From positions 257,776-321,775 of the forward strand of contig JAQULM010000002.1 in NCBI GenBank assembly GCA_028718605.1: a DNA stretch of 64,000 bases, given 5' to 3'. The notes beneath the pieces are model-generated. The model ran no database searches. It saw only the letters and a list, made by a program, of their open reading frames with translations, and was not told the origin of the DNA. Shown piece after piece: positions 5,950-37,468 of the stretch (positions are counted from its first letter, which is position 1; every line of letters starts with the position of its first letter). This stretch comes from Patescibacteria group bacterium. GTDB lineage: Bacteria > Patescibacteriota > Patescibacteriia > UBA10025 > JAHIVO01. Both the position numbers and the translations under genes were made by a program.

Positions 5950-8712
5950 TCACGAAACGGGCAGGTCTTTCATTTCGCCCCAGCTCTTCCCGACTGACAC
6001 GTCTGTCCTGATCGGCGCACGGAGCTTATGAACGGTGTCCATTTCCTCCGCGACAAACGTCCCGACCCGCCCAACATCCGCGTCCGGTACCTCAAACACC
6101 AGCTCGTCATGCACCTGCAGGATCATCTTGGCCTTCGGGCACACCTGGGGCAGCTTCCGGTGGATATTAATCATGGCTATCTTCATGAGATCAGCGGCTG
6201 TGCCCTGTACCGGCATATTCACGGCCATGCGCTCTGCGGATGCGCGCACCTGCGGCATCGACGAGTTTATCTCCGGCAAATATCGCCGCCTGCCGAACAG
6301 TGTCTCGACATACTCCTGCTCGTGGGCAAGCGAGATAGTCTGCGCAAGGTACTCCTGAATCTCCGGATGCGCGTAGAAATATTTCTCGATAAACGCCCGC
6401 GCGCGCTCCCGCGTCATGTTTTTCCGCGACGCCAGGCCCCACGCTCCCATGCCGTACAGCACGCCAAAATTCACCTCTTTTGCCTCATAGCGCTGGGTGT
6501 CCGTCACCTCGGCAAGCGGAATGCCGTAGATATCCGCGGCAGTCCTGCGGTGGATGTCTTCGCCGTCCTGGAACGCCTTGATCATTTTCACGTCACCGGC
6601 AAGCGACGCAACAATCCGGAGCTCGATCTGGGAATAGTCAGCTGATACGATCGAAAATCCTTTTTCGGCGATGAACGCATTCCTGATTTTCTTCCCGATT
6701 TCGGTCCTGATCGGAATATTTTGCAAATTCGGCTCAGACGATGATAAGCGGCCGGTCGCGGTCACGGTCTGGTTAAAACTTGTATGCACCCTGCCGGTTT
6801 TCGGATTCACCAGCTTTGGCAGCGCCTCGAGGTACGTTGATTGGAGCTTCGCGAGCTCCCGATTCTCAATGATAAGGGGGACGAGCGGATGTTTGTCTTT
6901 CAGCTTCTCGAGCTCCGCAGCTGCCGTGGATATGCCCGTCTTAGTCTTATGGATTCCTTCCGTGCTCACGCCCAGCTTTTCGAACAGCACGCCCTTGAGC
7001 TGGAGCGGCGAATTAATGTTAAACGTCGTCCCGGCCGTATCATAAATTTTCTTCTCGAGTGAAGCGAGTGCCGCTCCGATCTCCCGAGACATTGCCTGAA
7101 GATACTTCGAATCAATCTTGACGCCGTTCTGTTCGAGTGCGGCCAGCACCGGCACGAGCGGCATTTCAATTTTCTGCATCAGCGGCAGTAAATTCTTTTC
7201 CTCCAGCTCCGGCTTGAAATACCGGCACAGGCGGTAGGTATAGTCAGCGTCCTCGCACGAATACCATGAAATTTTCTCGACCGGCACCAGTTCCATGGAA
7301 ATGGCCTGCTTGCCCTTGCCGATGAGGTCGGTGATCGGCTGCATGCGGTACCCGAACACTTCGAACGCGCAGTTATCGAGCCCATGCCCCCGAGAGCCAG
7401 GGTTCAGGAGGTATGAGGCGACCATACTGTCAAAGGCGACCGGCGCCACCGTAATGCCAGATTGGGCCAGTAATGCCATGTCGTATTTGATATTATGGCC
7501 AAACTTTTCGATTTTCGGATCCTCAAGAAGCGGCGTAAGAGTTTTCAACCAGTGGGAATGCGCATGCACATTGAGGTAAAAAGCCTTGCCGTCTTCCCAG
7601 CAAAAACTGATCCCGAGCAGCTTGGCGCGGAACGGATCAACACTCGTGGACTCAGTATCAACGGCGAATGCGTTGTGCGTTCGCGCCTCACCAAGAAAAT
7701 CCGCGAATGCATCGTCGGAATCAACCAACGTATAGGTCACGCCCTCATGCGTTGGTGTCGGCGCTTTCTCTCCCTGAACTGTGCCAGGGCGAGCGTCCGT
7801 TTTCATTTCCGTCATGGCAGCAGGCGATCCGGGCAATCGCGTGAGGAGGCTCTTGAACTGCAGCTCGCGGAATAAGTCAACCACTTCTTGCTCATTATAT
7901 CCGCCGAGGGTGCATTGCTCAATCGTATACTCGAGTGGCACATTACGCACGATCGTTGCGAGGCGTTTGCTCATGAGCGCGTCCTTCTTGTGTTCCCGCA
8001 GAAGCTTCTGGTATCGCGGCGGGACGGGCGTTTTTCCCGACGGCGCCTCCATCTTCCGGTAGATATTTTCGAGGCCGCCAAACTTCTTGAGCAGATCGAT
8101 AGCGCCTTTTTCGCCAATGCCACGGACGCCCGGAATGTTATCAGAGGGATCACCGGCGATTGCCTTGAGGTCAACCATCTGCTCTGGAGCAAGGCCGTAC
8201 CGCTCAGCAAACGCTTTGATGTCATACGTGATAGTGTCAGAAACTCCTTTACGCAGCGTGTACACGGTTGTTTTGTCGCTGATGAGCTGGAATGTGTCTT
8301 TGTCGCCCGTAACAATCACCGTCTTGAGACCGCGCTTTTCGTTGTCGGCTGCGAGCGTGCCAATAATATCATCTGCTTCGAACCCGTCTTTCTCGAATAC
8401 GCGGACGTGTAGCGCTCCGAGCGCTTGTTTTGCGATCGGAATCTGCGCATAGAATTCGTCCGGTGCGGCAACGCGTCCCGCTTTGTATTCTGCGTATTCC
8501 TCGTGCCTGAACGTTTTCTTTTTCTTGTCGAATGCGGCTGCAACGTATGCGGGCTTGAATTCCTTCAATACTTTGAAGAGTACGGTTAAAAAACCGTACA
8601 CGGCGTTCACGAGCTGGCCCTTCTTGGTCGCGAGCGGCGGCAGCGCATGAAAGCTCCGGTGCAGCAACGCATTGGCGTCTATCACCACGAATGTCTTTGC
8701 GGTAGTCTTCAT
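5950..8712 (-). CDS. polA: DNA polymerase I (5'-3' exo, 3'-5' exo-like and polymerase domains).
   Basis: N-terminus MKTTAKTFVVIDANALLHRSFHA is the 5'-nuclease domain. Polymerase motifs RYEAKEVNFGVLYGMG and ILQVHDELVFEV are present. The track ORF extends to 8775, but an extended -10 (TGgTACAAT) inside that extension (rc of 8731-8739) supports the ATG at 8712. Confidence 0.88.
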   Translation of the reverse strand: MKTTAKTFVVIDANALLHRSFHALPPLATKKGQLVNAVYGFLTVLFKVLKEFKPAYVAAAFDKKKKTFRHEEYAEYKAGRVAAPDEFYAQIPIAKQALGALHVRVFEKDGFEADDIIGTLAADNEKRGLKTVIVTGDKDTFQLISDKTTVYTLRKGVSDTITYDIKAFAERYGLAPEQMVDLKAIAGDPSDNIPGVRGIGEKGAIDLLKKFGGLENIYRKMEAPSGKTPVPPRYQKLLREHKKDALMSKRLATIVRNVPLEYTIEQCTLGGYNEQEVVDLFRELQFKSLLTRLPGSPAAMTEMKTDARPGTVQGEKAPTPTHEGVTYTLVDSDDAFADFLGEARTHNAFAVDTESTSVDPFRAKLLGISFCWEDGKAFYLNVHAHSHWLKTLTPLLEDPKIEKFGHNIKYDMALLAQSGITVAPVAFDSMVASYLLNPGSRGHGLDNCAFEVFGYRMQPITDLIGKGKQAISMELVPVEKISWYSCEDADYTYRLCRYFKPELEEKNLLPLMQKIEMPLVPVLAALEQNGVKIDSKYLQAMSREIGAALASLEKKIYDTAGTTFNINSPLQLKGVLFEKLGVSTEGIHKTKTGISTAAAELEKLKDKHPLVPLIIENRELAKLQSTYLEALPKLVNPKTGRVHTSFNQTVTATGRLSSSEPNLQNIPIRTEIGKKIRNAFIAEKGFSIVSADYSQIELRIVASLAGDVKMIKAFQDGEDIHRRTAADIYGIPLAEVTDTQRYEAKEVNFGVLYGMGAWGLASRKNMTRERARAFIEKYFYAHPEIQEYLAQTISLAHEQEYVETLFGRRRYLPEINSSMPQVRASAERMAVNMPVQGTAADLMKIAMINIHRKLPQVCPKAKMILQVHDELVFEVPDADVGRVGTFVAEEMDTVHKLRAPIRTDVSVGKSWGEMKDLPVS

Positions 8713-9090
8713 ATATTTTATACTGGCGTTATTGTACCATTTTTTCTGCCCGCCGTCCCTGCGGACAAATCGCATTGACAGTACGCATACGGCCTATGGT
8801 ACACTTGAAGTATAAAAGGGGGTGTTTGGTTGTCTCCCGATTCACTGAGAGGGGGAATCGAGAGTTCCTTCATCGGTTCGATGCCACAGATGGCATCGAA
8901 AGGTGCCACCAGGCACCGTAGTATCATCGACCGGCCGCCACACGTTCTGAAGTATCTTGATTTTCAGCGGCCGGTCTTTTTTTATTCCATCCAATGCTTG
9001 ACAAATAATGAATTCTCCAATACTATCACCTGATTTGCGTCACTCGCGTTTTTTGACAACATAACAACACGGAAAGAAAGGAAACTGCCA

Positions 9091-10488
9091 ATGGCATACG
9101 AAGAAGAAAGCCGGCGGCAGTTTATTGTCGATCCGGCACACGTACGAAGGTCAAGTTTTGGCTTGCACCCTCGTTTCCACAAGACATTCGCTCGGGCGAT
9201 GCGCGATGGCCGGCGGCTCCCCGTAGAAAAATGGGAAGCGCGCTATCAGCAGCCTATCGCAGCATACCGTGATCCACGGCATCCGTTTGTCTGCGTCCTG
9301 CCGCGTTCTGCGTTCTGCCAGTACGTCGACGACTGCGGCGACTGCATCGGTGGCACGCAAAGTCTGTGGTTCAGCTCCACGGACTTCTACGTCGATATGA
9401 GCGATAAACCGGGTGCGGTATTCGCCCAATTTCACCATCCGCTTTTCGAACGCTTATGGAGCGTATCAGAGCTCCAGTTCCTTGTCCCGCCTTATCCGAC
9501 CGACAAGGAAGATGGTGAACTAGTATTTATCACCCCTCCGTTCTCGCACTCTCGCGGTGAGCACTGCTTGCTCGCCGCTGCTATCGCGGAGGTGCTGCTG
9601 GCGCGGGCCGGATTTTCGACTGAGGAACGGGCGGCATTTGTCCTGGCTATGGGCTACCATGACATCGCCATGCCGGCTGGCGGCGATTCGGTCAAACGAG
9701 TATCCCCGGACGAGCTCGATGAGGAAAAAAACTTTGCCTCACTACTCGAACAAACCGGGCTCGCGGCTGCCTGGAAACAGCAATTCGGCTTCAGCCTGGA
9801 CGCAGCGGCTGCCTGGGTGCGCAATGAGGGAATGCTTGGCCTGCTGCTGGATATCATTGACAAGATATCCTACGTCTCCATGGACTGTTACTCACACGGG
9901 CTATTGTTCAATGGAAATGTGCGGAAGCACTGTTCCCGTCATCCGTTGTTTCTCGATGTGTGGCGGGACATCAGGTTCACCCCGGACCGGCAGCGCTTCG
10001 CCTTCCTCTATCCGGACCGGCTCTTCGACTTCCTTCTGGCGCGTGCGTACGAGTACCAGGAGTTGCTTTTCAACCCAGCTGCCCGGTTCCTCGACTTCCA
10101 CTTGACGAACCTCGTCCGCCCGCTGTACGAAACGGGGAGAATAACCAAAGACCAGCTGCTCAGCTGGTCGGACGGCCAGCTCGAGTGCTGCCTTGAGGCT
10201 CACTATGGGGAAGCGGCGGTTCACCTCTCCGTCATCAATGCTGCTAACTACCAATGGCAGCGGTTTGATACGCAGGAAGAACTGATTGACTTCTGGGGGA
10301 CGCTCGGCAAATCGTTCGATCATGTTGAAACGATTTCAGGATTCAACCCCAATCTTGAATGGCCGGTCTATGCCGCCAACGGCACCGACATCGTTCCTGC
10401 CCGCGAACGCCTTACGCCAGCTCAAATCAGCGAGCTGGAAACTATTGTCAAGGCAACGCGCGGCAACTTTATCTACTGGCACACTTAA
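9091..10488 (+). CDS. HD-domain phosphohydrolase family protein.
   Basis: H...HD metal-binding signature (HSRGEHCLLAAAIAE ... AMGYHDIAM). A promoter-like TTGACA-17-TACTAT lies at about 9000-9028. Confidence 0.5.
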   Translation: MAYEEESRRQFIVDPAHVRRSSFGLHPRFHKTFARAMRDGRRLPVEKWEARYQQPIAAYRDPRHPFVCVLPRSAFCQYVDDCGDCIGGTQSLWFSSTDFYVDMSDKPGAVFAQFHHPLFERLWSVSELQFLVPPYPTDKEDGELVFITPPFSHSRGEHCLLAAAIAEVLLARAGFSTEERAAFVLAMGYHDIAMPAGGDSVKRVSPDELDEEKNFASLLEQTGLAAAWKQQFGFSLDAAAAWVRNEGMLGLLLDIIDKISYVSMDCYSHGLLFNGNVRKHCSRHPLFLDVWRDIRFTPDRQRFAFLYPDRLFDFLLARAYEYQELLFNPAARFLDFHLTNLVRPLYETGRITKDQLLSWSDGQLECCLEAHYGEAAVHLSVINAANYQWQRFDTQEELIDFWGTLGKSFDHVETISGFNPNLEWPVYAANGTDIVPARERLTPAQISELETIVKATRGNFIYWHT

Positions 10489-18654: not shown

Positions 18655-20976
18655 TCACGATTGCTGTGCGTTTTTCTTTTTGAGTATATACCACCGTAGC
18701 GCAAAACCAACGCCAGCTGCCGCACCAACGGATGCGATGACGATAACGGGAACCGAGGACGGCTGTTCGGGAATGTTCTGTGGCAACTCAACGGTACCTT
18801 CAGTCGACGTACCGAGAACGGTGCCCTCGCGCGTGGTGGCCGCTTCTGGGGCAATGGCAATATCGCCCTCTCCCCTCGGCAGTATCCGCAACCCGGCATC
18901 TGTCTTATCAAGGACTCCGGTTATAGTAATGCCGGCGCCTGCCGTAACGTCTGGCTTTGCCATGCCGGTTTTCGCTTGAATATACGCTCGGATTGAATTC
19001 CCCTGTGAGTCAACAATATAGACGCTCCGGCCGCTCACGCTTTCAACTTCACCAGAAATAGTAATCAGATCGCCAATCATCGCTTCATTAATATCGCCGA
19101 TCCCAACACGTTTAGGCGCGGAGCCGTTTGCACCATCTTCCCGCTCATCAACTGCGCTACTGCTCACCGGCGTTGCAGTTTTTTTGACGCTCCGTTCTTC
19201 GGTCTCGGCTTCTTCCTCGAGAGCATCGGCATTCTCGGCACCGGGCGTCGGTTCGTCAGTCCAGTACCATCCGTCCGACGATGCCGTGCGGGCAAATGAT
19301 AACCCTTCCTTGGCAGTTTCATACGAAACGCCGTTGATAATGCCGCCGTGCGGATCGATGAGGTAAACAGTTTCACGGTCATTATTCAGACTGATACGGC
19401 TCTCCGCGCGTTCCAAAAGAAAATAATCATGCGCTGCGATCTTCGAACCGGGCGGGAATGAAAAATACACCTTTGAATCGGTTACCTGCCAACAGTCCAG
19501 CGAGACATCGCGGCTGCCCGCATTGTACAGTTCGATAAATTCGCACTCCTGGTCCGGACCGGTGCAATTCGGGAATAGCTCGCTGAAAATAACATCGTTT
19601 GAATAATCAAAATCGGTTACGGTTACCGGCTCCTCAACTTCTGACTCGCCGCCATTGCCGTCCTGCACCAGCAATGTGACGGTGTATTTTCCCGCTTTCG
19701 GATACGAGTATTCAATTTCAACGCCATTACCGTCACCTCCATCTCCAAAATTCCAGATATACTCAAGCGAATCCCCATCGGGGTCATCCGAATCGGCGGC
19801 ACTAAACTGCACTGGCTGCCCGACTTTCGGCGATTCCTTATCGATTGAAATGATTGCTTCGGGCTGCTGGTTCGAAACGGTAAAAATATTCGCCTCTCCC
19901 GGCGTCGGCTGGTACGACCATGCCCATTCACCGTCAACCAAACTATACGAACGCCCTTCAGCGCAGCCAGCGTAGGTTACTGAATCCAGTGCGTTTCCAT
20001 TCGGCTGATACAGTGTAACGCCATCGGTTGAATTATTCAGCATAATGCCCGAAACGGACTTCGAAATCGTGAAAAAACCTCCGCCGGGAATAATCGTCGT
20101 ACTGAAATCCTCCTTCACGATTGTATAGCGCCGGGTACTCTGGTCACCGGCCTGCCAGCCTGCAACATCAACAGGCGTCGTGCCAGTATTGGCGAGCTCA
20201 ATAAATTCAGCATCGTCGCTGCCTTCGGGATTCGGAAGCAATTCGGACAACGCGATTGCGGTGGAATACGCTGGGCTTGCCGGGGGCGCTGGAGGCTCCG
20301 AGGGCTCTGCGGGATCATCAGGCGCTTCCGGTTCGTCCGGAACTTCGATGTTCAAATATTCCTGTTCAGACGCTGCGTCCTGCGGTTCGGACACGTCCCG
20401 AATATTGAAATCCGCGGCGTTTTGATCGGTGTCTTCCCCATTACCGAGATAGTAATGCGCTCCTCCCTCAACCATCGTTTCTGCCGTTGAATCAGCCTGC
20501 GCTTTGCGCTCCACGCTTTTATTCGGGCCAGGATTCGGGAGTGCCGCTCCCTCAAAAACCGACGCTGTACCAAAACCAACGGCGTCAACAACTTCTGCTG
20601 CGGCATCGAGGAGCAGGACTGTATTATTGTCAGCGATCGAGGTGGTGGTCGAGTAGTACAAATCAGGCTGTACACTGCCGAGGTACCCGGCAGGGTGCGC
20701 AACCAGTACGAAGGAATGTGCAGGAATGGAGCGGTCCCCAAACGTATCGACCAGAATATATTCCGTTCCCGAGGCTGTCTTTTTAATCAGCTGCCAACCA
20801 TCGACACTCACCGCACCATCCATCGGATTGTACAACTCGATAAACTCGTCCGTTGTCTTCCCGCTGCCGCCGGTTATTTGCACCTCGCTGATGACGATGT
20901 GGTCCACGGTTATTGCGTCACTAATAAACGGCCACGCGAAAAGCATCGCGATGAGGACAAACAGGAACTTTTTCAT
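18655..20976 (-). CDS. Large surface protein with three lamin-tail-domain (LTD) repeats, a PKD-like domain and a C-terminal TM anchor.
   Basis: Signal peptide MKKFLFVLIAMLFAW. LTD signatures IVISEVQ..DEFIELYNP, ALSELLPNPEGSDDAEFIELAN and VIFSELFPN..ECEFIELYN. The PKD-like block is YIWNFGDGGDG...KYTVTLLVQD. C-terminal hydrophobic segment plus KKKN. Confidence 0.6.
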   Translation of the reverse strand: MKKFLFVLIAMLFAWPFISDAITVDHIVISEVQITGGSGKTTDEFIELYNPMDGAVSVDGWQLIKKTASGTEYILVDTFGDRSIPAHSFVLVAHPAGYLGSVQPDLYYSTTTSIADNNTVLLLDAAAEVVDAVGFGTASVFEGAALPNPGPNKSVERKAQADSTAETMVEGGAHYYLGNGEDTDQNAADFNIRDVSEPQDAASEQEYLNIEVPDEPEAPDDPAEPSEPPAPPASPAYSTAIALSELLPNPEGSDDAEFIELANTGTTPVDVAGWQAGDQSTRRYTIVKEDFSTTIIPGGGFFTISKSVSGIMLNNSTDGVTLYQPNGNALDSVTYAGCAEGRSYSLVDGEWAWSYQPTPGEANIFTVSNQQPEAIISIDKESPKVGQPVQFSAADSDDPDGDSLEYIWNFGDGGDGNGVEIEYSYPKAGKYTVTLLVQDGNGGESEVEEPVTVTDFDYSNDVIFSELFPNCTGPDQECEFIELYNAGSRDVSLDCWQVTDSKVYFSFPPGSKIAAHDYFLLERAESRISLNNDRETVYLIDPHGGIINGVSYETAKEGLSFARTASSDGWYWTDEPTPGAENADALEEEAETEERSVKKTATPVSSSAVDEREDGANGSAPKRVGIGDINEAMIGDLITISGEVESVSGRSVYIVDSQGNSIRAYIQAKTGMAKPDVTAGAGITITGVLDKTDAGLRILPRGEGDIAIAPEAATTREGTVLGTSTEGTVELPQNIPEQPSSVPVIVIASVGAAAGVGFALRWYILKKKNAQQS

Positions 20977-21434
20977 ATATCTTTACGGTCAGTGTTTGAG
21001 GTGTCGCCGCCGGTATCGGCATACGGTTGCGTTCTGCGGCGATTTGTAAATGTATCCCATGCAATTGCCAAATTGAATAATTGCCGTGCAGATTTATCAT
21101 ATTCATTAATAAGCTTTTCACATACCGTTGTCTCAATTTGGTAAATATCTCGAATTTGTTCAAGGCTGACGACACATTCATTGCACTCAGCCATTGCGTC
21201 GTCGATATATTTCTGAAAACCACGCTTCTGATGTTTTTTGGCATACCCTTCCGCAACTAACCGGGGTGCTGCTTTACTTGACCTGCTGAGCTGATCTTTG
21301 AGGTCAAATTTTTCACATCCTGGCAATTGTGGAATTACCACGGTCATCACTTCGATGCATGCGGTATATAAATTTCTAAATACCTCTAAATCCTTAAAAC
21401 TTTTAATTGGACTACTCATATGTTGTTTACACAA
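20973..21434 (-). CDS. Four-helix-bundle protein of the family often annotated as 23S rRNA intervening-sequence protein.
   Basis: LEVFRNLY ... APRLVAEGYAKKHQKRGFQKYIDDAMAECNE matches this family. It overlaps the LTD gene start by 4 nt. The start could be 21434 or 21419; neither has an SD. Confidence 0.6.
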   Translation of the reverse strand: MCKQHMSSPIKSFKDLEVFRNLYTACIEVMTVVIPQLPGCEKFDLKDQLSRSSKAAPRLVAEGYAKKHQKRGFQKYIDDAMAECNECVVSLEQIRDIYQIETTVCEKLINEYDKSARQLFNLAIAWDTFTNRRRTQPYADTGGDTSNTDRKDI

Positions 21435-21984: not shown

Positions 21985-22134
21985 ACGACGATACCTTTCT
22001 TGGTTACCTGCCATGCACCGTGCACGACCGTTTCAGTAAAACGCGCTACACTCGTGAGGGGCCCCGCAGCGCATGAAAACGTGCATGCATAGTTTTGGCT
22101 TATATTAGATAAAGAACGATTTATTTAATCTGCC

Positions 22135-22162
22135 TTGACAGTATTTGTAAAATGGGTAGAAT
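22135..22162 (+). promoter_or_regulatory. Promoter-like element: TTGACA, 16-bp spacer, TAGAAT.
   Basis: Consensus -35 with a good -10. It faces the low-GC island and runs antisense to the minus-strand small membrane-protein genes. No convincing CDS lies downstream. Confidence 0.3.
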
Positions 22163-22422
22163 ATAAAACAGCTCTAGAAAAAAGGCGTTACTGACTTTGC
22201 AGGCTCTGCTATCCGAAACCCCTCGTAACCCGAGGTTGCTAAAGATGGTAGAGAAAAGTAGCGTTTATATTTCTACGTTATTCGAGCTCCAAACTGACGA
22301 CCGAACCCTCATGCTAAGGTCGTTTTTTGGTTATACGAAAAACATCCGGCGCGTGATCGGGATACGGAAAGACCCACGTTATCTCCGTACTAGAACGTCA
22401 CGACATTCCACCGTCCATGGCT

Positions 22423-22749
22423 TTACTCTTTTCGATCATTCAACGGGCGATTTTGGTTTACGTTTTCGTTTGGTATTTTTCGATACTTGTTTTCTAACTT
22501 ATTGAACATCAAGATGCCCCCGAAATACAATGCGAGCATTCCAATCAATCGAGGAATGCTATTGAGGTACCTGAACTGGTAATTCATGATGAGCATGATT
22601 ACGAATATATAATTGAATAGCGCCTCAAACGAAATCACCCGTGCTAATTTAAAATTACTAACACGCATCGGTTTTCTGACTCGGAAAAACAAAGCAACGA
22701 TCGTGGCGACCGACAGGACTATAGTCCAAATCTCAATATACATGTCCAT
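22423..22749 (-). CDS. Small membrane protein (~108 aa, 3 predicted TM). Paralog 3 of a tandem triplet in a low-GC island.
   Basis: Hydrophobic helices WTIVLSVATIVALFF, YIFVIMLIMNY and LIGMLALYFGGILMF. AT-rich coding region. Confidence 0.45.
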   Translation of the reverse strand: MDMYIEIWTIVLSVATIVALFFRVRKPMRVSNFKLARVISFEALFNYIFVIMLIMNYQFRYLNSIPRLIGMLALYFGGILMFNKLENKYRKIPNENVNQNRPLNDRKE

Positions 22750-22770
22750 AGATAAATGATCAGTGAATTA

Positions 22771-23049
22771 TCACTCGTTGAAAAAAATTAACCCCAATGA
22801 AACGACCACATGCACTCCCCACGCCATGAGCGCGCCCTGTGCGTGGTATTTGTAGTTCTTGCTCGACAATCCGAAAAAAGCAACGAAGAACATCACGCCA
22901 CTCATTATTCCGATAGCGACCGCAAATATGTCAATTTCGGAATGTGAAAATACCACCTTCGCGAGGTATAGCGCCAATGACACCACGACGTACAGGGTTA
23001 AACCAATGATTCGCTCCCTCGAGAAAAATGTTTTGCTTAGATTTTGCAT
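22771..23049 (-). CDS. Small membrane protein (92 aa). Paralog 2 of the tandem triplet.
   Basis: Three hydrophobic helices. Size and architecture match the neighbours. Confidence 0.45.
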   Translation of the reverse strand: MQNLSKTFFSRERIIGLTLYVVVSLALYLAKVVFSHSEIDIFAVAIGIMSGVMFFVAFFGLSSKNYKYHAQGALMAWGVHVVVSLGLIFFNE

Positions 23050-23060
23050 CGCTCTGCAAG

Positions 23061-23324
23061 TTACTGGTTTTTATACTTCTTCAGCAAATACGAATAGAAT
23101 ATTGCGCCAGCAATAAATAGCGCTGTTCCAATTAAATATACATAGAATTTAATCTGACTGCCGTAAGTAAAAATTAGAACCGCATACAAATAGAAGAAAA
23201 TCGAGGCAAGAAAAACAACGACCGAGGTCCGTACATTTTGGAATCGGGCATAGTGCCGATATGCCCCAAACTGCACAATGATGAAAAAGACCGTGATTCC
23301 AATGAGAGTTAGTTCTGTGTCCAT
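23061..23324 (-). CDS. Small membrane protein (87 aa). Paralog 1 of the tandem triplet.
   Basis: Three hydrophobic helices (LIGITVFFIIVQFGAY, VVVFLASIFFYLYAVLIF, LIGTALFIAGAIFYSYLL). Confidence 0.45.
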   Translation of the reverse strand: MDTELTLIGITVFFIIVQFGAYRHYARFQNVRTSVVVFLASIFFYLYAVLIFTYGSQIKFYVYLIGTALFIAGAIFYSYLLKKYKNQ

Positions 23325-23410
23325 AGGATACTCAGTGAATAGTAAATTTTATTACGAAATATGTTTACATTAATGTATCGGAGAGAAGTAGACCTTCTCT
23401 CCGATTTACT

Positions 23411-24019
23411 TCACGGCCTGGTAATCCACGGTGGTACTACGGGGAATCCCCATGATACATTAACGCAGAATCCACCCCATGCGTTATAACATGCTTGAAG
23501 TACCGAGCCAGTGAAACCGCTAACCGCTCCAACCAGTGGAAACCATAGCACTGTGATTGTGCCTATCTGCAATCCGTTGGCAATCTGCGAGGCGGTTGAC
23601 CCCCAGAAACAACACCGTATTCCCCACCAGTATCGCCAACAAGCGCTACCGAGAGCAGTCGAACCAGGTTTCCTCTGCTCCTGAAGTATCAGGGAGTTCA
23701 CAATCGGGATGCCGTCCTTCAAACCATTCGCGGCATTCATTTCGCCGGATGTGAGATTCTTGCCCTCTGCGCTTAGAAATCCCTGAAAATCCAAGGTATA
23801 CGTACCATCGTCATTAATGGTTACAAACCGATCCATCTTTGCAATGGTATTTTCCACTACCTTGTACTGTTCAAGCATGAGGGCGAGGGAATCAACACCG
23901 GGATTGTCCGTAGGACCGGCAATGGTCGTAGAGGTTTTATCGCCCAACTGCGAACAACCGTAGATCGCCAGTGCAAAGACACCGACAACCACCATAAAAA
24001 TCAAATTCTTGCGTTTCAT
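23411..24019 (-). CDS. Lipoprotein with a Cys/Trp/Gly-rich hydrophobic C-terminal domain. Candidate secreted toxin or bacteriocin-like protein.
   Basis: Signal peptide plus a lipobox-like AIYGC. C-terminal ~80 aa: SACWRYWWGIRCCFWGS...VLWFPLVGAVSGFTGSVLQACYNAWGGFCVNVSWGFPVVPPW. Confidence 0.45.
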   Translation of the reverse strand: MKRKNLIFMVVVGVFALAIYGCSQLGDKTSTTIAGPTDNPGVDSLALMLEQYKVVENTIAKMDRFVTINDDGTYTLDFQGFLSAEGKNLTSGEMNAANGLKDGIPIVNSLILQEQRKPGSTALGSACWRYWWGIRCCFWGSTASQIANGLQIGTITVLWFPLVGAVSGFTGSVLQACYNAWGGFCVNVSWGFPVVPPWITRP

Positions 24020-24212
24020 TTCGCAACCATCGCTTTCTGCCCGGAAATATTTTCCAGGCTGTTTCGTTCAGTTTCAGTTGACCGTGGTTTTTCAAAGGGC
24101 AGATGTGTCGGTTGCCAGAGACCCACGTACTATCTGGCTACCGGCGTTTGTGTCTAATCCAGAACGCCTCCTTTCTCACTCATTAAAGAGCAATTTAAAG
24201 ATGAAATTTCAA

Positions 24213-25277
24213 TCAATTCGCATCCTCAACCAACACCGGCCGGGTCGCTTCCCCTTGAGACGGATCCATCGTGAACCGCTTGCCGTTCGCTCGGAGAAAG
24301 AACACCCCATTTTCTACCTTTTCAATGACGACATCCGTAGTTATCAAATGGTCGGGATCTTCATATGAAATACCTGTATTAGCATACGGATCTGGTTCGG
24401 TGATATCAATATATTGAAAAGAAATGTGCTCCCCTGCTGGTATTATTGATATAAAATTGAGTCGTGTCCGATCATTATTCCATATAAAACTTGTGTACCG
24501 TTCATCAATCTTACCGAGTCCCCGAATTTCATTGGCTCCGAGCTCACGCGAGGTACCGTCTAATTGATTCCGCATAATAATACTCTGCTCGCCATTATTA
24601 TACGTTTGCAGTAGCAGAACATATACGCCGCCTGAAAATTCATATTGAACAACGTTTGTTACTAAAATGGAAAATGTCGACAGCGCTTTGTCAATCAAAC
24701 TGCGATTAGCATTGATTACCTCCGGCGACTGAGCTGCGAAATCAATCGCATAGTAGTACTGGCCGCTTGAAAAGATATAATATTCCATTGCTCCCCGTGC
24801 CGATTCAATTTCATGGCGAGAATCGTCCCTTAAAAAAAACTGGACGCTCTTCTCTCCTATTTTTTTCTCTGTGACAGTGGCCTCCGTAGTATTAATATCC
24901 GCGATTAATTCTCCTTCAGTCACGCCATCAGCCAAAGAATATACAATTATCCCCATCGAGATTCTTTCATCCGTTTCGGTATATGGTACCTTGTGATCCG
25001 CCTCGCTGCCGGAGCCAAACTCCTCGAGCGAGAGCGTTCGTATCGCCAGGTCCGACTCCTCGATTAATCCCTCCATCGGCACACTATGGTGCCACCAGGC
25101 CGACGGGTACTCGATTGAGTAGTGGTACTCTGCTGACGTAAAACGGGTCTGCCGGGTGTTCGTATTCCCCGTCCCCGTGCTTTCCGAATTCTCCTTTTGA
25201 AATACGATGAAAGCACACGCTCCGGCGACTACGGCAAGTGCAACACCGAATACAATTGCATTTCTTGTATTATTCAT
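24213..25277 (-). CDS. Secreted or membrane-anchored hypothetical protein, 354 aa.
   Basis: N-terminal signal/anchor (AIVFGVALAVVAGACAFIVF). No recognised catalytic motif. Confidence 0.45.
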   Translation of the reverse strand: MNNTRNAIVFGVALAVVAGACAFIVFQKENSESTGTGNTNTRQTRFTSAEYHYSIEYPSAWWHHSVPMEGLIEESDLAIRTLSLEEFGSGSEADHKVPYTETDERISMGIIVYSLADGVTEGELIADINTTEATVTEKKIGEKSVQFFLRDDSRHEIESARGAMEYYIFSSGQYYYAIDFAAQSPEVINANRSLIDKALSTFSILVTNVVQYEFSGGVYVLLLQTYNNGEQSIIMRNQLDGTSRELGANEIRGLGKIDERYTSFIWNNDRTRLNFISIIPAGEHISFQYIDITEPDPYANTGISYEDPDHLITTDVVIEKVENGVFFLRANGKRFTMDPSQGEATRPVLVEDAN

Positions 25278-25364
25278 ATTGTTAAAATAATTAATTAGTA
25301 ATGGTTGGGAAGAAAGCGCACTGCCCTCTTCCCAATCTGCGAAAGCGAGTCGAACATGGCTGAC

Positions 25365-26069
25365 CTATTCTTCATCGGTCAAGCAGTTGTCAATCACGTA
25401 AAACTTCAGGTCGGCGGTCTTCTCTTTGCCGGTATTTACGTTGATAACGTGCTTGGCAATCCGATTTCGAACGCAGTAGTTGCCGTCGACAACCTCGAAC
25501 CGCCCGTCATGGAAGTTCGTTATGATAACCGCGGTATGTTGCCGCGTTCCAGTGAATTGCATCACTTCACCCGGCTGAGCGTACCGAATTCCGTCCCCGC
25601 GGTTGCGCCAGGGGTAGGTGTCTCGGTAATCGTACGTACCGCCGGGCAACGATGCCGCACCGCCAGAAGCCCGTTCAAGCAGCTCGCACGTGAGCAGTTT
25701 ACATTCCCCGCTGTATCCAGGGATAGTACTGCGATTACTATAGTCCCAGTCGCCTGGGACATAGCAACCCCATACACCCAATATATACTGCTCCCATTCA
25801 CAGGTGACCCGATCATTCTGGTCCCAGATCTGCTGATCAACAGAGTATAATGCCTCGAGAACGATCTGGCGGTTGCGGCCTGCTCGACCGAGCGACTCCC
25901 ACCACGAGCAATTCGGTGGTCTAGCAGCTAACCGTACCTCTCTACTCTGGCCGGTATCTTCCAGCGTTGGTTCAACCACTTGCTCACTATCCCCGCACCC
26001 TTGGAACAGCCCGAGTGCGACGACAAACACAACGGCGCCAACAAGCGCCCAACGTCTCCGTTTCATCAC
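25365..26069 (-). CDS. Lipoprotein with a putative CHAP-like amidase/peptidase domain.
   Basis: Signal peptide plus lipobox (LGLFQGCG). Cys-containing segment (GECKLLTCELL) and TRQHTAVIITNFHDGRFEVVDGNY, resembling the CHAP His region. Confidence 0.4.
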   Translation of the reverse strand: MMKRRRWALVGAVVFVVALGLFQGCGDSEQVVEPTLEDTGQSREVRLAARPPNCSWWESLGRAGRNRQIVLEALYSVDQQIWDQNDRVTCEWEQYILGVWGCYVPGDWDYSNRSTIPGYSGECKLLTCELLERASGGAASLPGGTYDYRDTYPWRNRGDGIRYAQPGEVMQFTGTRQHTAVIITNFHDGRFEVVDGNYCVRNRIAKHVINVNTGKEKTADLKFYVIDNCLTDEE

Positions 26070-28686: not shown

Positions 28687-29298
28687 TTACTTCCCAAACT
28701 GATCCAGCGCGGCGTTGTATTCCTTCTTTTTCAGAATCGGGACACCGAGGTCTTGGGGCGAGAAGCCCGGTGACTGAGGTCCCCTGGATAGGAATGACAG
28801 GAAGCCGCGGTGGCTGCACAGGTAGTAGTAGTTGACCAGGATTGTCAGTGAGTCGGCGTGCGTCTTCGCCGCAGCCAGCAGGTTCGTGAGATGGCCGTTT
28901 TCTGCCATCACCGCGGCGATCGTCGTGTCAAACGTTGCCTTCATCTCCTGGTAAGCAGAATCGCGTTCTATGGCCTGGCAGGTCAGGGCATCGCGCTCCG
29001 CCGTCAGGCTAGTTACCTCTGCCTTCAATGTCTGCACTTCGGTGCACGCGAACGCGACATGCTCCTGCAGCTTCGCGTTCTCCTTCCCAATACTGTCAGC
29101 CACGGTGATCGCGCCCTGAATCACTTCGTCTGTCTGCTGGATAACGCTGCTCATCCGCGTCGTATCAGCCTCCAGGCGGTTGTTCTTCACCGTCAGGGCA
29201 GTAATCTGGTTGTTCAGCTCCTCCTCCTTGTTGGAGCAGCCGACAAACAGCGATACGGCGATAAACACCACAACGAGCATGGTAATGATCTTGTGCAT
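28687..29298 (-). CDS. Lipoprotein with a coiled-coil region.
   Basis: Signal peptide plus lipobox (LFVGCS). Heptad-like Q/E/L-rich region. Confidence 0.4.
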   Translation of the reverse strand: MHKIITMLVVVFIAVSLFVGCSNKEEELNNQITALTVKNNRLEADTTRMSSVIQQTDEVIQGAITVADSIGKENAKLQEHVAFACTEVQTLKAEVTSLTAERDALTCQAIERDSAYQEMKATFDTTIAAVMAENGHLTNLLAAAKTHADSLTILVNYYYLCSHRGFLSFLSRGPQSPGFSPQDLGVPILKKKEYNAALDQFGK

Positions 29299-33677: not shown

Positions 33678-34147
33678 ATACATCGCAGCATCAGAACAGT
33701 ATCAACACTTTATCCTCAACAATCGAAAATATGCAAAAAACCCTAATAACTAACCAAAAAGGCGGCTAAATCGTACTATTTGTTGACGGTTTAGTCCCGC
33801 CAAAAGCGGGATTTTTGTTACTCCGAGCGAAGCGAGGAGTAACAACCCCGAGGGAATCGAGGGGTCCCACAGTTTGAAAGCTCAAAACGAAGAGGCGGCG
33901 GAAATATGGCTGAGGCAACAACCCCGAGAGAGCCGTCGGCGAATCGAAGGGTCCCCAAGCACTGCCGCCCAACGTACTTAATACCAAATATCCGAACTGC
34001 CGATCACTCTATCCTCGATAGAATGGTTCCAGATCAGATCTTTGACCGGACATTAACAACTGAATATGGTAGAACGAGATCTTGTAAGCAAGTTAAGTAA
34101 GTATACTAAGACACAAGGACGCAAGTTCAGTGTTTTAGTGATTGCAA

Positions 34148-37272
<3,125 letters not shown>

Positions 37273-37468
37273 CATATTGCAATCACTAATACGCTGATCT
37301 TTTTAGAATCCGTTCTACCATATGAACAAAGACTACGGTCCGCACCTTATTGCGGTCTTTGTTCTGGTGATAGTCCTCTTCGGACTTCTATTTTACCTGA
37401 CGCCGCTCTCATCCTAAGACCGGTCACCAGTGGCCAGAGAGAACAACCATGGTTCGTTGTTCGCTGGC

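Follow-up and report, generated by a model that had tools for sequence, protein, structure and literature searches.

The window analysed here is a 64,000-nt stretch of a Patescibacteria group bacterium (GenBank assembly GCA_028718605.1, contig JAQULM010000002.1, positions 257,776 to 321,775, forward strand), on whose minus strand a predicted lipoprotein of 202 aa (p202) is followed by three small membrane proteins of 87, 92 and 108 aa (p87, p92 and p108). Comparison with homologous loci, numbered below with the prefix L, indicates that these genes belong to a real, conserved and previously undescribed module of Patescibacteria, made up of a lipoprotein and small transmembrane (TM) proteins that together fall into two or three families. 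Pfam, NCBIfam, PADLOC and PHROGs contain neither the p202 nor the small-TM families, and where their members are named they are called "hypothetical protein", as is p202 in the Patescibacteria metagenome-assembled genome (MAG) GCA_028711455.1 (contig JAQTSE010000001.1; hypothetical protein PHY34_00480). Our preferred but tentative reading is of a chromosomal, vertically inherited cell-envelope module in which the small proteins act as membrane anchors or co-subunits and not as antidotes; sequence alone does not settle the choice between a toxin with its antidotes and an ordinary envelope complex.

The lipoprotein family and its small membrane partners

p202 is a member of a conserved family of lipoproteins of about 200 aa and not an orphan: an exhaustive HMMER comparison with 1.84 billion representatives recovered 45 relatives of 147–239 aa, most of them aligned over most of their length, with E-values from 4e-38 to 7e-4. 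Word-indexed homology searches returned only p202 when it was the sole query, and 4–5 members when family profiles were used. The initial annotation had described a lipoprotein with an extremely Cys/Trp/Gly-rich C-terminal region, and the counts bear this out: the hydrophobic N-terminus ends in the lipobox AIYG-C22, and the Gly-rich last ~80 residues contain 5 Cys (the Cys total of mature p202) and 8 Trp. The lipobox Cys closes the hydrophobic segment in 44 of 45 family members, with a consensus resembling L-x-G-C-S; an h-region followed by a lipobox of the form [LVI][ASTVI][GAS]C is the pattern of Lgt/Lsp substrates, and lipidation of the family is predicted.

The N-terminal domain of the family carries the motif YE-WI--MDPYVT-N-DGTY, and the C-terminal domain the motif C-x-x-Y-W-W-G-x-x-C-C-Y-x-G ... 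P..G ... Y-G-G-F-C-x-N-x-S-W-x-G-G-x-W-x-T-x-P, which reaches the last residue; in p202 itself the C-domain segments read CWRYWWGIRCC and then GGFCVNVSW...WITRP. Residues W131, W132 and G133 are invariant in the alignments, C22, C137, C185 and N108 are near-invariant, and V66, F81, L100, F184 and W198 can be added to the latter group; no invariant constellation of catalytic-type polar residues was found there, N108 being the sole near-invariant polar position. Cysteines come and go in pairs among the 45 sequences: C127 and C136 are both present in 28, both absent in 16 and discordant in 1 (phi 0.95), whereas C137 and C185 occur together in 42 and are both lost in 2 (phi 0.81). Because the members of each pair appear and disappear together, the signature expected of bonded cysteines, two disulfides, C127–C136 and C137–C185, are supported in the extracytoplasmic domain. 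An alternative pair at positions 181 and 201 is found mostly where the C127/C136 pair is absent, and C176 is lineage-specific.

The initial annotation had recognised nothing in either the lipoprotein C-domain or the small proteins, and indeed none of them matches Pfam, NCBIfam, PADLOC or PHROGs at meaningful E-values; p202 also lacks a match in PDB, and no housekeeping family lays claim to it in Pfam, NCBIfam, PDB profiles or fold searches. One weak hit to the SRCR protein PIT54 among PDB sequence profiles (E 0.0035) was dismissed as a matter of Cys/Trp composition. Two candidate paralogs of p202 were likewise not accepted: window positions 28687–29298 match the lipoprotein hidden Markov model (HMM) weakly and over the signal peptide only, and the match of L025 5052–5621 is confined to the signal peptide as well. 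The latter gene, two genes upstream of the L025 family member, encodes a 189-aa lipoprotein with a similar signal peptide and degenerate "KWW...CYGG...SWTW" motifs, and may be a decayed paralog of the p202 family.

An AlphaFold2 (AF2) model of p202 built with the family alignment (mean predicted local distance difference test score, pLDDT, 84.2; predicted template modelling score, pTM, 0.63) has a disordered linker (residues 23–39, with pLDDT below 50 at residues 28–38), a helical N-domain at 40–116 (helices 40–65, 78–88 and 91–116, with a beta-hairpin at 66–76 that carries MDPYVT-N-DGTY), and a C-domain at 125–202. The C-domain opens with a beta-hairpin bearing the WWG/CC motif (125–139), continues with a helical hairpin (140–158 and 161–181) and closes with strands at 183–189 and 198–200. 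Structure searches with the model found no PDB or viral (BFVD) fold match, and the lipoprotein domain as modelled appears to be a new fold. None of the 41 positions of the helical hairpin is charged in p202, against a family average of 2.2 charged residues in 39, and Gly, Ala, Ser, Thr and aromatics abound in it. With an entropy of 2.67 bits it varies as much as the signal peptide, in contrast to 1.6–1.9 bits for the strongly conserved flanking beta elements; the C137–C185 disulfide would, in the modelled arrangement, staple its base.

The three small proteins had been taken for consecutive 3-TM paralogs of the same architecture. Three hydropathy peaks are present in each, and AF2 gives p87 three long helices (pLDDT 72); p87 and p108 are homologous, but p92 is unrelated to them and has inverted topology. 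Smith–Waterman comparison of p87 with p108 gave z-scores of 8.7 against global and 3.9 against local shuffles, and the leave-one-out family HMM scored p87 at 32 bits and p108 at 40.4 bits, whereas p92 showed no similarity to either protein by Smith–Waterman and scored only 1.5 bits with the HMM. p92 serves as a negative control here, showing that the HMM does not merely score TM composition. Among 1,340 open reading frames (ORFs) from the window and all loci, the HMM matched only ORFs directly downstream of lipoprotein genes, including untrained members in L022 (53.7 bits) and, weakly, in L009 and L025. Closest to p108 are L017_a, L013_a and L005_a (BLASTP E 1e-8 to L017_a). Two divergent copies of the core family occur together in the window, L005, L008 and L020, and by nearest-neighbour analysis copies sharing a genome are never mutual closest relatives, so the duplications are ancient; p108 is best regarded as an ancient paralog of p87 within one family, and p92 as a different, third family of inverted topology that is sometimes present. 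Between syntenic relatives the small-TM partners are undetectable by tblastn.

By the positive-inside rule, all members of the p87/p108 family are predicted to be N-out/C-in, with a charge asymmetry of 13 vs 1 and a long basic C-terminal tail in p108. Many members carry a K-x-A-x-F-x-N (...R) motif, of which p87 has the version ARFQN, in the predicted cytoplasmic loop after TM1, together with a basic C-tail, and this loop holds the best-conserved motif of the partners. For p92 the prediction is N-in/C-out (K+R 5 vs 1 in the inverted sense), in agreement with a fusion in L010, where a single 180-aa, 6-TM protein has a p87-like N-terminal half and a p92-like C-terminal half. The latter half (residues 93–180) is the only detected relative of p92 (BLASTP 36% identity over 87 aa, E 2e-12); the order of the two halves is that of p87 and p92 in the window, the topologies fit a direct 3+3 fusion, and the union of p92 with a p87-like protein suggests that they are subunits of a complex. 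A 158-aa protein in L025 shows five peaks of hydropathy and matches the small-TM profile in part at two places.

Loci were collected by lipoprotein homology with a 13-sequence sub-alignment, the full 45-sequence alignment having no sufficiently conserved stretch; L001–L003 are 100% identical re-assemblies of one genome and are of no use as strain variants for the ratio of nonsynonymous to synonymous substitution (dN/dS). Of the 18 loci whose sequence continues downstream of the lipoprotein gene, 16 have one to three genes for 3-TM proteins of 83–108 aa immediately after it on the same strand. The small ORFs are thus kept as proteins beside lipoprotein homologs in many genomes, which answers the initial annotation's question of whether gene order and coding are conserved. 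In five loci (L006, L008, L010, L011 and L022) the conservation extends to the order PRPP synthetase, pilin-like p175, lipoprotein, small TM and ssb, with other genes between p175 and the lipoprotein and before ssb, and the neighbourhood includes a gene for an LTD surface protein; identities to the window in these five are about 48% for PurD, about 70% for SSB and 31–43% for p202. Because position is kept where PurD is only about 48% identical, the module has been inherited vertically over a deep divergence and is not a mobile or recently acquired island.

Three loci, L007, L012 (from a Zixibacteria MAG) and L016, have an intact lipoprotein gene with no intact partner next to it; neither the window nor the loci so collected showed an orphan small-TM gene, and no domain swapping or polymorphism of the lipoprotein was seen among the loci compared. 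L016 is a near-identical strain of L009 with a 23-nt frameshift in the small-TM gene. These two, Parcubacteria GW2011_GWA2_48_9 (L009) and a JGI contig (L016), are 99.9–100% identical and differ by three indels in a shared stretch of about 8.5 kb, all inside genes of the locus: 51 nt in frame in the lipoprotein linker, the 23-nt frameshift, and 66 nt in an M23 peptidase gene. The indels could be real population heterogeneity or an assembly artefact. Two further contigs, L006 (CAYPXF010000022.1) and L010 (CAZJUO010000026.1), are titled "uncultured Gammaproteobacteria bacterium" yet have the gene order of the Patescibacteria window, sharing with it PRPP synthetase, p175, the lipoprotein, small TM, the p234 family, ssb and the LTD protein (identity 69% for SSB in L010 and 40–48% for p175); their taxonomic label or binning is probably wrong.

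Gene neighbourhood, base composition and RNA elements

All five minus-strand ORFs of the initial annotation were found where it had placed them (Table 1), with intergenic gaps of 86, 11 and 21 nt along p202, p87, p92 and p108.

Table 1. Positions of the module genes and adjoining features in the window
Feature	Positions	Strand	Description
p108	22423-22749	minus	108-aa 3-TM ORF
p92	22771-23049	minus	92-aa 3-TM ORF, separate family
p87	23061-23324	minus	87-aa 3-TM ORF
Hairpin in p202/p87 gap	23377-23405	minus	inverted repeat and RNA fold
p202	23411-24019	minus	202-aa lipoprotein ORF
p354	24213-25277	minus	354-aa ORF; context only
p234	25365-26069	minus	Cys/Trp-rich lipoprotein; context only

A sharp drop in GC had been proposed for 22.1–24.2 kb. 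The drop is real across 22.1–23.4 kb, where GC is 0.37–0.45 against a window mean of 0.52 (standard deviation 0.048), and GC is low again in p354, but p202 itself (23.4–24.0 kb) is average at about 0.50. Given the codon usage of the genome, amino-acid composition accounts for about half of the deficit in the small genes; the remainder is a deficit of GC at third codon positions (GC3; z -2.9 to -6.6) common to p354, p202, p87 and p108 and opposite in sign to the deviation of the highly expressed ssb. Recent horizontal transfer as the cause of the dip was ruled out by the synteny kept in relatives with about 48% PurD identity, and the term "island", as far as it implies recent acquisition, does not hold. 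A domain survey of the 64-kb window found no phage, type IV secretion system (T4SS) or mobility genes; the wider window is an ordinary chromosomal core with PolA, PurF, HolA, PurD, PRPP synthetase, 23S and 5S rRNA, and tRNAs.

Gene content between the conserved flanks is variable and consists mostly of secreted or anchored proteins. p354, upstream of p202, had been called secreted; it is extracytoplasmic, but with one TM segment at residues 8–26 and no good lipobox or cleavage site it looks N-terminally membrane-anchored and not freely secreted. Its N-terminal part has a weak PsbP_2-like match (Pfam E 0.0063), and p354 is not conserved with the module in other genomes; N-anchored PsbP_2-like proteins do lie upstream of the lipoprotein in L004 (7080–7724, PsbP_2 E 7.5e-5) and L009. 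The next gene, p234, has the lipobox FQGC and a weak CHAP match (E 0.019), and shares with its L010 homolog (8697–9542) the pattern G-x-C-K...L-x-R-A-x-G...H-T-A-V/I...D-G/A-N-Y, a papain-like Cys...His...Asn series. This family is syntenic with the module in three genomes (the window, L010 and, at 7308–7928, L006), and p234 is a probable divergent cell-wall hydrolase of NlpC/P60-CHAP type. Genes for M23 peptidase lipoproteins directly follow the small-TM gene in L004, L022 and L025 and lie close by in L009, so that, together with the CHAP-like genes, hydrolases stand beside the module in the window, L004, L006, L009, L010, L022 and L025. Secreted or lipoprotein wall hydrolases (M23, C39-like and CHAP-like, some with Por_Secre_tail) alternate repeatedly with N-anchored PsbP_2-like proteins of 180–370 aa at L004 1815–11038, L009 804–6034, L022 7145–10423, L025 7363–10037 and window 24213–26069, an arrangement that resembles hydrolase/partner gene pairs.

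The gap between p202 and p87 contains a hairpin with a perfect 12-bp stem and a 5-nt loop, 5 nt past the p202 stop codon and without a T-tract (RNA fold z -3.97), and the lipoprotein/small-TM gap is structured in all 15 loci examined (z -2.4 to -6.4). Control same-strand intergenic regions (n=19) are also strongly structured, with a mean z of -3.2. A module-specific operon attenuator was ruled out by this comparison: since the controls are equally structured, the hairpin is a generic, terminator-like gene-end element. Nearly every same-strand intergenic region in the L004–L025 loci has a strong GC-rich stem-loop soon after the stop codon, usually without a T-tract, which looks like a lineage-wide gene-end element, either a terminator or an mRNA stabiliser.

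The 408-nt gap between p108 and ssb holds a candidate small RNA gene of about 155–160 nt (window 22135–22328, plus strand, with the RNA itself placed at 22170–22328), antisense to both neighbours, with a near-consensus promoter (TTGACA-N16-TAGAAT, 11/12 matches), blocks of conserved sequence, and a T-run after a GACGACC...GGTCGT hairpin. Counterparts lie upstream of ssb in L008 (7321–7508, minus), L010 (11057–11250, minus) and L022 (10426–10620, minus), where PurD is only about 48% identical; the candidate tracks with ssb and not with the module. It has no Rfam match at E up to 1, and RNAalifold found a conserved internal stem with 2 compensatory pairs in just 4 sequences. Elsewhere in the window, 23S and 5S rRNA genes are present without a 16S gene, and the 23S match (34142–37284, plus) spans 3,143 nt compared with 2,925 positions in the model, suggesting about 220 nt of insertions. 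A gene of the "23S rRNA-intervening sequence protein" family (20973–21434, minus) has the lowest GC3 of the region (0.36) and adjoins ssb; it shares 4 nt with the start of the gene for the LTD/PKD surface protein.

Envelope complex or effector with antidotes

In a physical model common to the envelope and effector readings, p202 would leave the cytoplasm through Sec, receive its lipid at C22 and be held at the outer face of the cytoplasmic membrane by its disordered linker of about 17 residues. The C127–C136 and C137–C185 bonds would lock a Trp-rich beta platform, with the second bond stapling the base of the hypervariable, nearly uncharged helical hairpin of about 40 residues; the platform would lie at the membrane interface while the hairpin enters the outer leaflet and lies against the 3-TM partner or partners. 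Only a few residues of the small partners protrude from the bilayer, so any specific contact with p202 would have to be made in or at the membrane, and we infer that the uncharged, disulfide-stapled hairpin is the only plausible contact element. Under the envelope reading, the product would be a small hetero-oligomeric complex joining an extracellular Trp platform, a candidate surface for binding glycan, peptidoglycan or lipid headgroups, to the partners' cytoplasmic loop (K-x-A-x-F-x-N...R). The module sits in a variable region of secreted and surface proteins that includes M23 and CHAP-like hydrolases, and its proposed and most likely role is structural or regulatory, in remodelling of the envelope or cell wall or at the surface in contact with the host. 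Deep synteny, ancient co-retained paralogs, the p87-like::p92-like fusion, the conserved cytoplasmic loop and the lack of polymorphism or domain swapping in the compared loci favour such a complex, as do lipoproteins without an intact partner where orphan partners are not seen.

Several points weigh against the envelope complex. The physical interaction of p202 with its small partners is something we infer; the hairpin is only moderately hydrophobic (mean Kyte–Doolittle 0.63) and could perhaps be merely the buried core of a soluble domain; and the partners number anywhere from 0 to 3 and differ in gene order between genomes, a pattern that is unusual for a complex of fixed stoichiometry and that immunity arrays typically show. 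Not every locus has hydrolase neighbours, L005 and L008 being without them, and the proposed role is vague and drawn from the neighbourhood alone. The roughly 20 independent loci are also a small set, and having been gathered by lipoprotein homology they yield linkage statistics in one direction only.

The initial annotation had favoured a toxin–immunity layout, which as an explanation of the module we regard as possible but doubtful. Here p202 would be a membrane-active surface lipoprotein, pore-forming or membrane-perturbing, whose hairpin inserts into the membranes of the episymbiont's host or competitors after local wall digestion by the neighbouring hydrolases, and the 3-TM proteins in the producer's own membrane would neutralise the hairpin by helix–helix binding, in the manner of immunity to pore-forming colicins. 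The architecture is compatible: a lipobox, linker and compact domain followed by one or more TM-protein genes is the layout of simple lipoprotein toxins (PMC12419801), same-strand linkage directly downstream is seen in the 16 of 18 loci noted above, and an uncharged, disulfide-stapled, hypervariable hairpin on a conserved scaffold would suit such an effector. So would partners that diverge fast and vary in copy number (1–3), a variable secretome locus with M23, C39-like and CHAP-like hydrolases and PsbP-like proteins, and the placing of the L009/L016 indels exactly in the lipoprotein, small-TM and M23 genes. The evolutionary pattern is nevertheless not that of toxin loci: among loci collected by lipoprotein homology we saw neither patchy or mobile distribution nor polymorphism, synteny is deep and vertical with no mobility genes or domain swapping, and p202 evolves only slightly faster than PurD (31–43% vs 48% identity). 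Lipoproteins without an intact adjacent partner (L007, L012 and L016) in the absence of orphan partners are the reverse of the usual excess of orphan immunity over orphan toxin genes. The paralogs are ancient, with two divergent core-family copies co-occurring in several genomes; p92 forms a family of its own, joined by fusion to a p87-like protein in one genome; the partners' best-conserved motif is predicted to be cytoplasmic; and a lipid-anchored protein under the producer's own wall has no evident delivery route. Homology to known systems is also missing, with no toxin, immunity or colicin family matched in Pfam or PADLOC and no known toxin or immunity relative in NCBIfam, PHROGs, PDB profiles or PDB/BFVD fold searches. 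That p202 should be a membrane-inserting effector of new fold, with p87 and p108 (and p92 as co-subunit) forming a new class of intramembrane immunity proteins, is a conjecture that we think rather unlikely.

The other readings are less credible still. A holin-like lysis or type 10 secretion-like cassette, with the 3-TM proteins as class-I-type holins for the hydrolases and the lipoprotein as a spanin-like or accessory component, had been raised by the initial annotation and strikes us as improbable; topology is the part of it that stands. Size, 3-TM N-out/C-in topology and charged C-tails match class I holins, and M23 or CHAP-like genes do lie beside the module in the seven places listed above, but no Pfam or PHROG holin or spanin family is matched, p202 has no viral structural relatives, and neither window nor loci contain phage genes. 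The hydrolases, moreover, have signal peptides or lipoboxes of their own, the small-TM genes are tightly linked to the lipoprotein gene and not to the hydrolase genes (L005 and L008 have none nearby), and monoderm-type envelopes need no spanin. We give even less credence to accessory parts of a T4SS or type IV pilus, with the small TM proteins VirB3/PrgI/VirB2-like, the lipoprotein VirB7-like and the hydrolase VirB1-like. A monoderm-type T4SS is indeed carried by Patescibacteria, and small VirB3/PrgI and VirB2-like proteins as well as hydrolases go with it (PMC12102498); pilin-like p175 and ssb are syntenic with the module; yet no VirB4, VirB6, coupling protein or TrsD was found in the window or among the called genes of any locus, the small proteins match no Pfam VirB3, PrgI or TrbC, and the T4SS genes of Patescibacteria cluster near dnaA/dnaN (PMC12102498) and not at this locus. 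Chance ORFs in an AT-rich stretch, an idea that the short, hydrophobic, low-GC genes annotated "hypothetical protein" might invite, are effectively refuted by the existence, in about 16 independent loci, of homologs whose length, topology, motif and position are conserved.

Comparison with known systems

Patescibacteria (the candidate phyla radiation, CPR) account for a large part of bacterial diversity and lead an attached life on other microbes, and to our knowledge almost nothing is known of the surface proteins that mediate this lifestyle. The module offers two or three conserved unannotated families and a confidently modelled lipoprotein domain without a structural relative, together with a testable hypothesis, the intramembrane pairing of the lipoprotein hairpin with 3-TM partners; HMMs of both families would permit annotation of genes now called "hypothetical". 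If p202 and its partners were effector and antidote, they would offer a first way into the question of how episymbionts harm host membranes without harming themselves and, as far as our searches show, would be the first such pair defined for this uncultured radiation; if they form an envelope complex, they would be a component, peculiar to this lineage, of a cell envelope that is poorly understood.

Resemblance to toxin–immunity systems is one of gene layout and partner topology only. Among pore-forming colicins, the E1-type immunity protein Cei has 3 TM segments and the A-type Cai has 4. By analogy alone, the module is similar in pairing an exported protein that has an uncharged helical hairpin with adjacent genes for small 3–4-TM proteins, the 3-TM proteins of 87–108 aa adjoining p202 being comparable in length (~90–110 aa) and TM number to the E1 type. 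Unlike colicins, there is no sequence or fold similarity and no Pfam colicin-immunity match; p202 has 180 mature residues, a beta/disulfide scaffold and a lipid anchor in place of a 10-helix globin-like bundle; and the module is chromosomal and vertically inherited, with a less hydrophobic hairpin and without receptor or translocation domains, plasmid or SOS context, or a lysis gene.

What defines the Lipocone superfamily is a cone of four helices whose active site has conserved His (H2), Glu (H3) and Asp (H4) residues (Burroughs, Nicastro and Aravind 2025, PMC12419801). Its simple lipobox toxins (Min-Wnt and CapCone-2) have TM or lipoprotein immunity proteins, for which action in or at the membrane is predicted (PMC12419801), and the toxins' succession of lipobox, poorly structured linker and compact helical domain next to a membrane-associated partner gene is also found in the p202 module. 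With its lipobox, linker and WxWGGC-like motif, p202 was tried as a Lipocone/Min-Wnt candidate and ruled out from the family alignment and Pfam: the family has no conserved His/Glu/Asp site, its invariant positions being Trp, Gly, Cys and Phe, and no Pfam Wnt, SAA, VanZ or DUF2279 match. Lipocone immunity folds (BamE-like, 4-TM, beta-jelly-roll and others; PMC12419801) likewise differ from the 3-TM family described here.

Class I holins are approached by p87 and p108 in length (~90–108 aa), 3 TM segments, N-out/C-in orientation, basic C-tail and proximity to hydrolases and a lipoprotein, with p92 oriented the opposite way. The topology reference for this class is lambda S105. Holin and type 10 secretion systems differ from the module in that no holin or spanin homology or phage context is present, the hydrolases are Sec or lipoprotein substrates, and the conserved partner is a lipoprotein of 200 aa.

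Among type VI secretion system (T6SS) effectors, Tse4/Tsi4 and VasX/TsiV2 pair a membrane-targeting effector with a polytopic immunity protein. Ssp6/Sip6 is a further T6SS pair of this kind (bioRxiv 10.1101/676247). No T6SS or other dedicated delivery machinery is found here, the envelope is of monoderm type, and there is no sequence similarity; what the module has in common with these systems is the layout of a candidate membrane-active protein beside small multi-TM partners, in loci that also contain wall-hydrolase pairs and PsbP/DUF1795-type accessory proteins.

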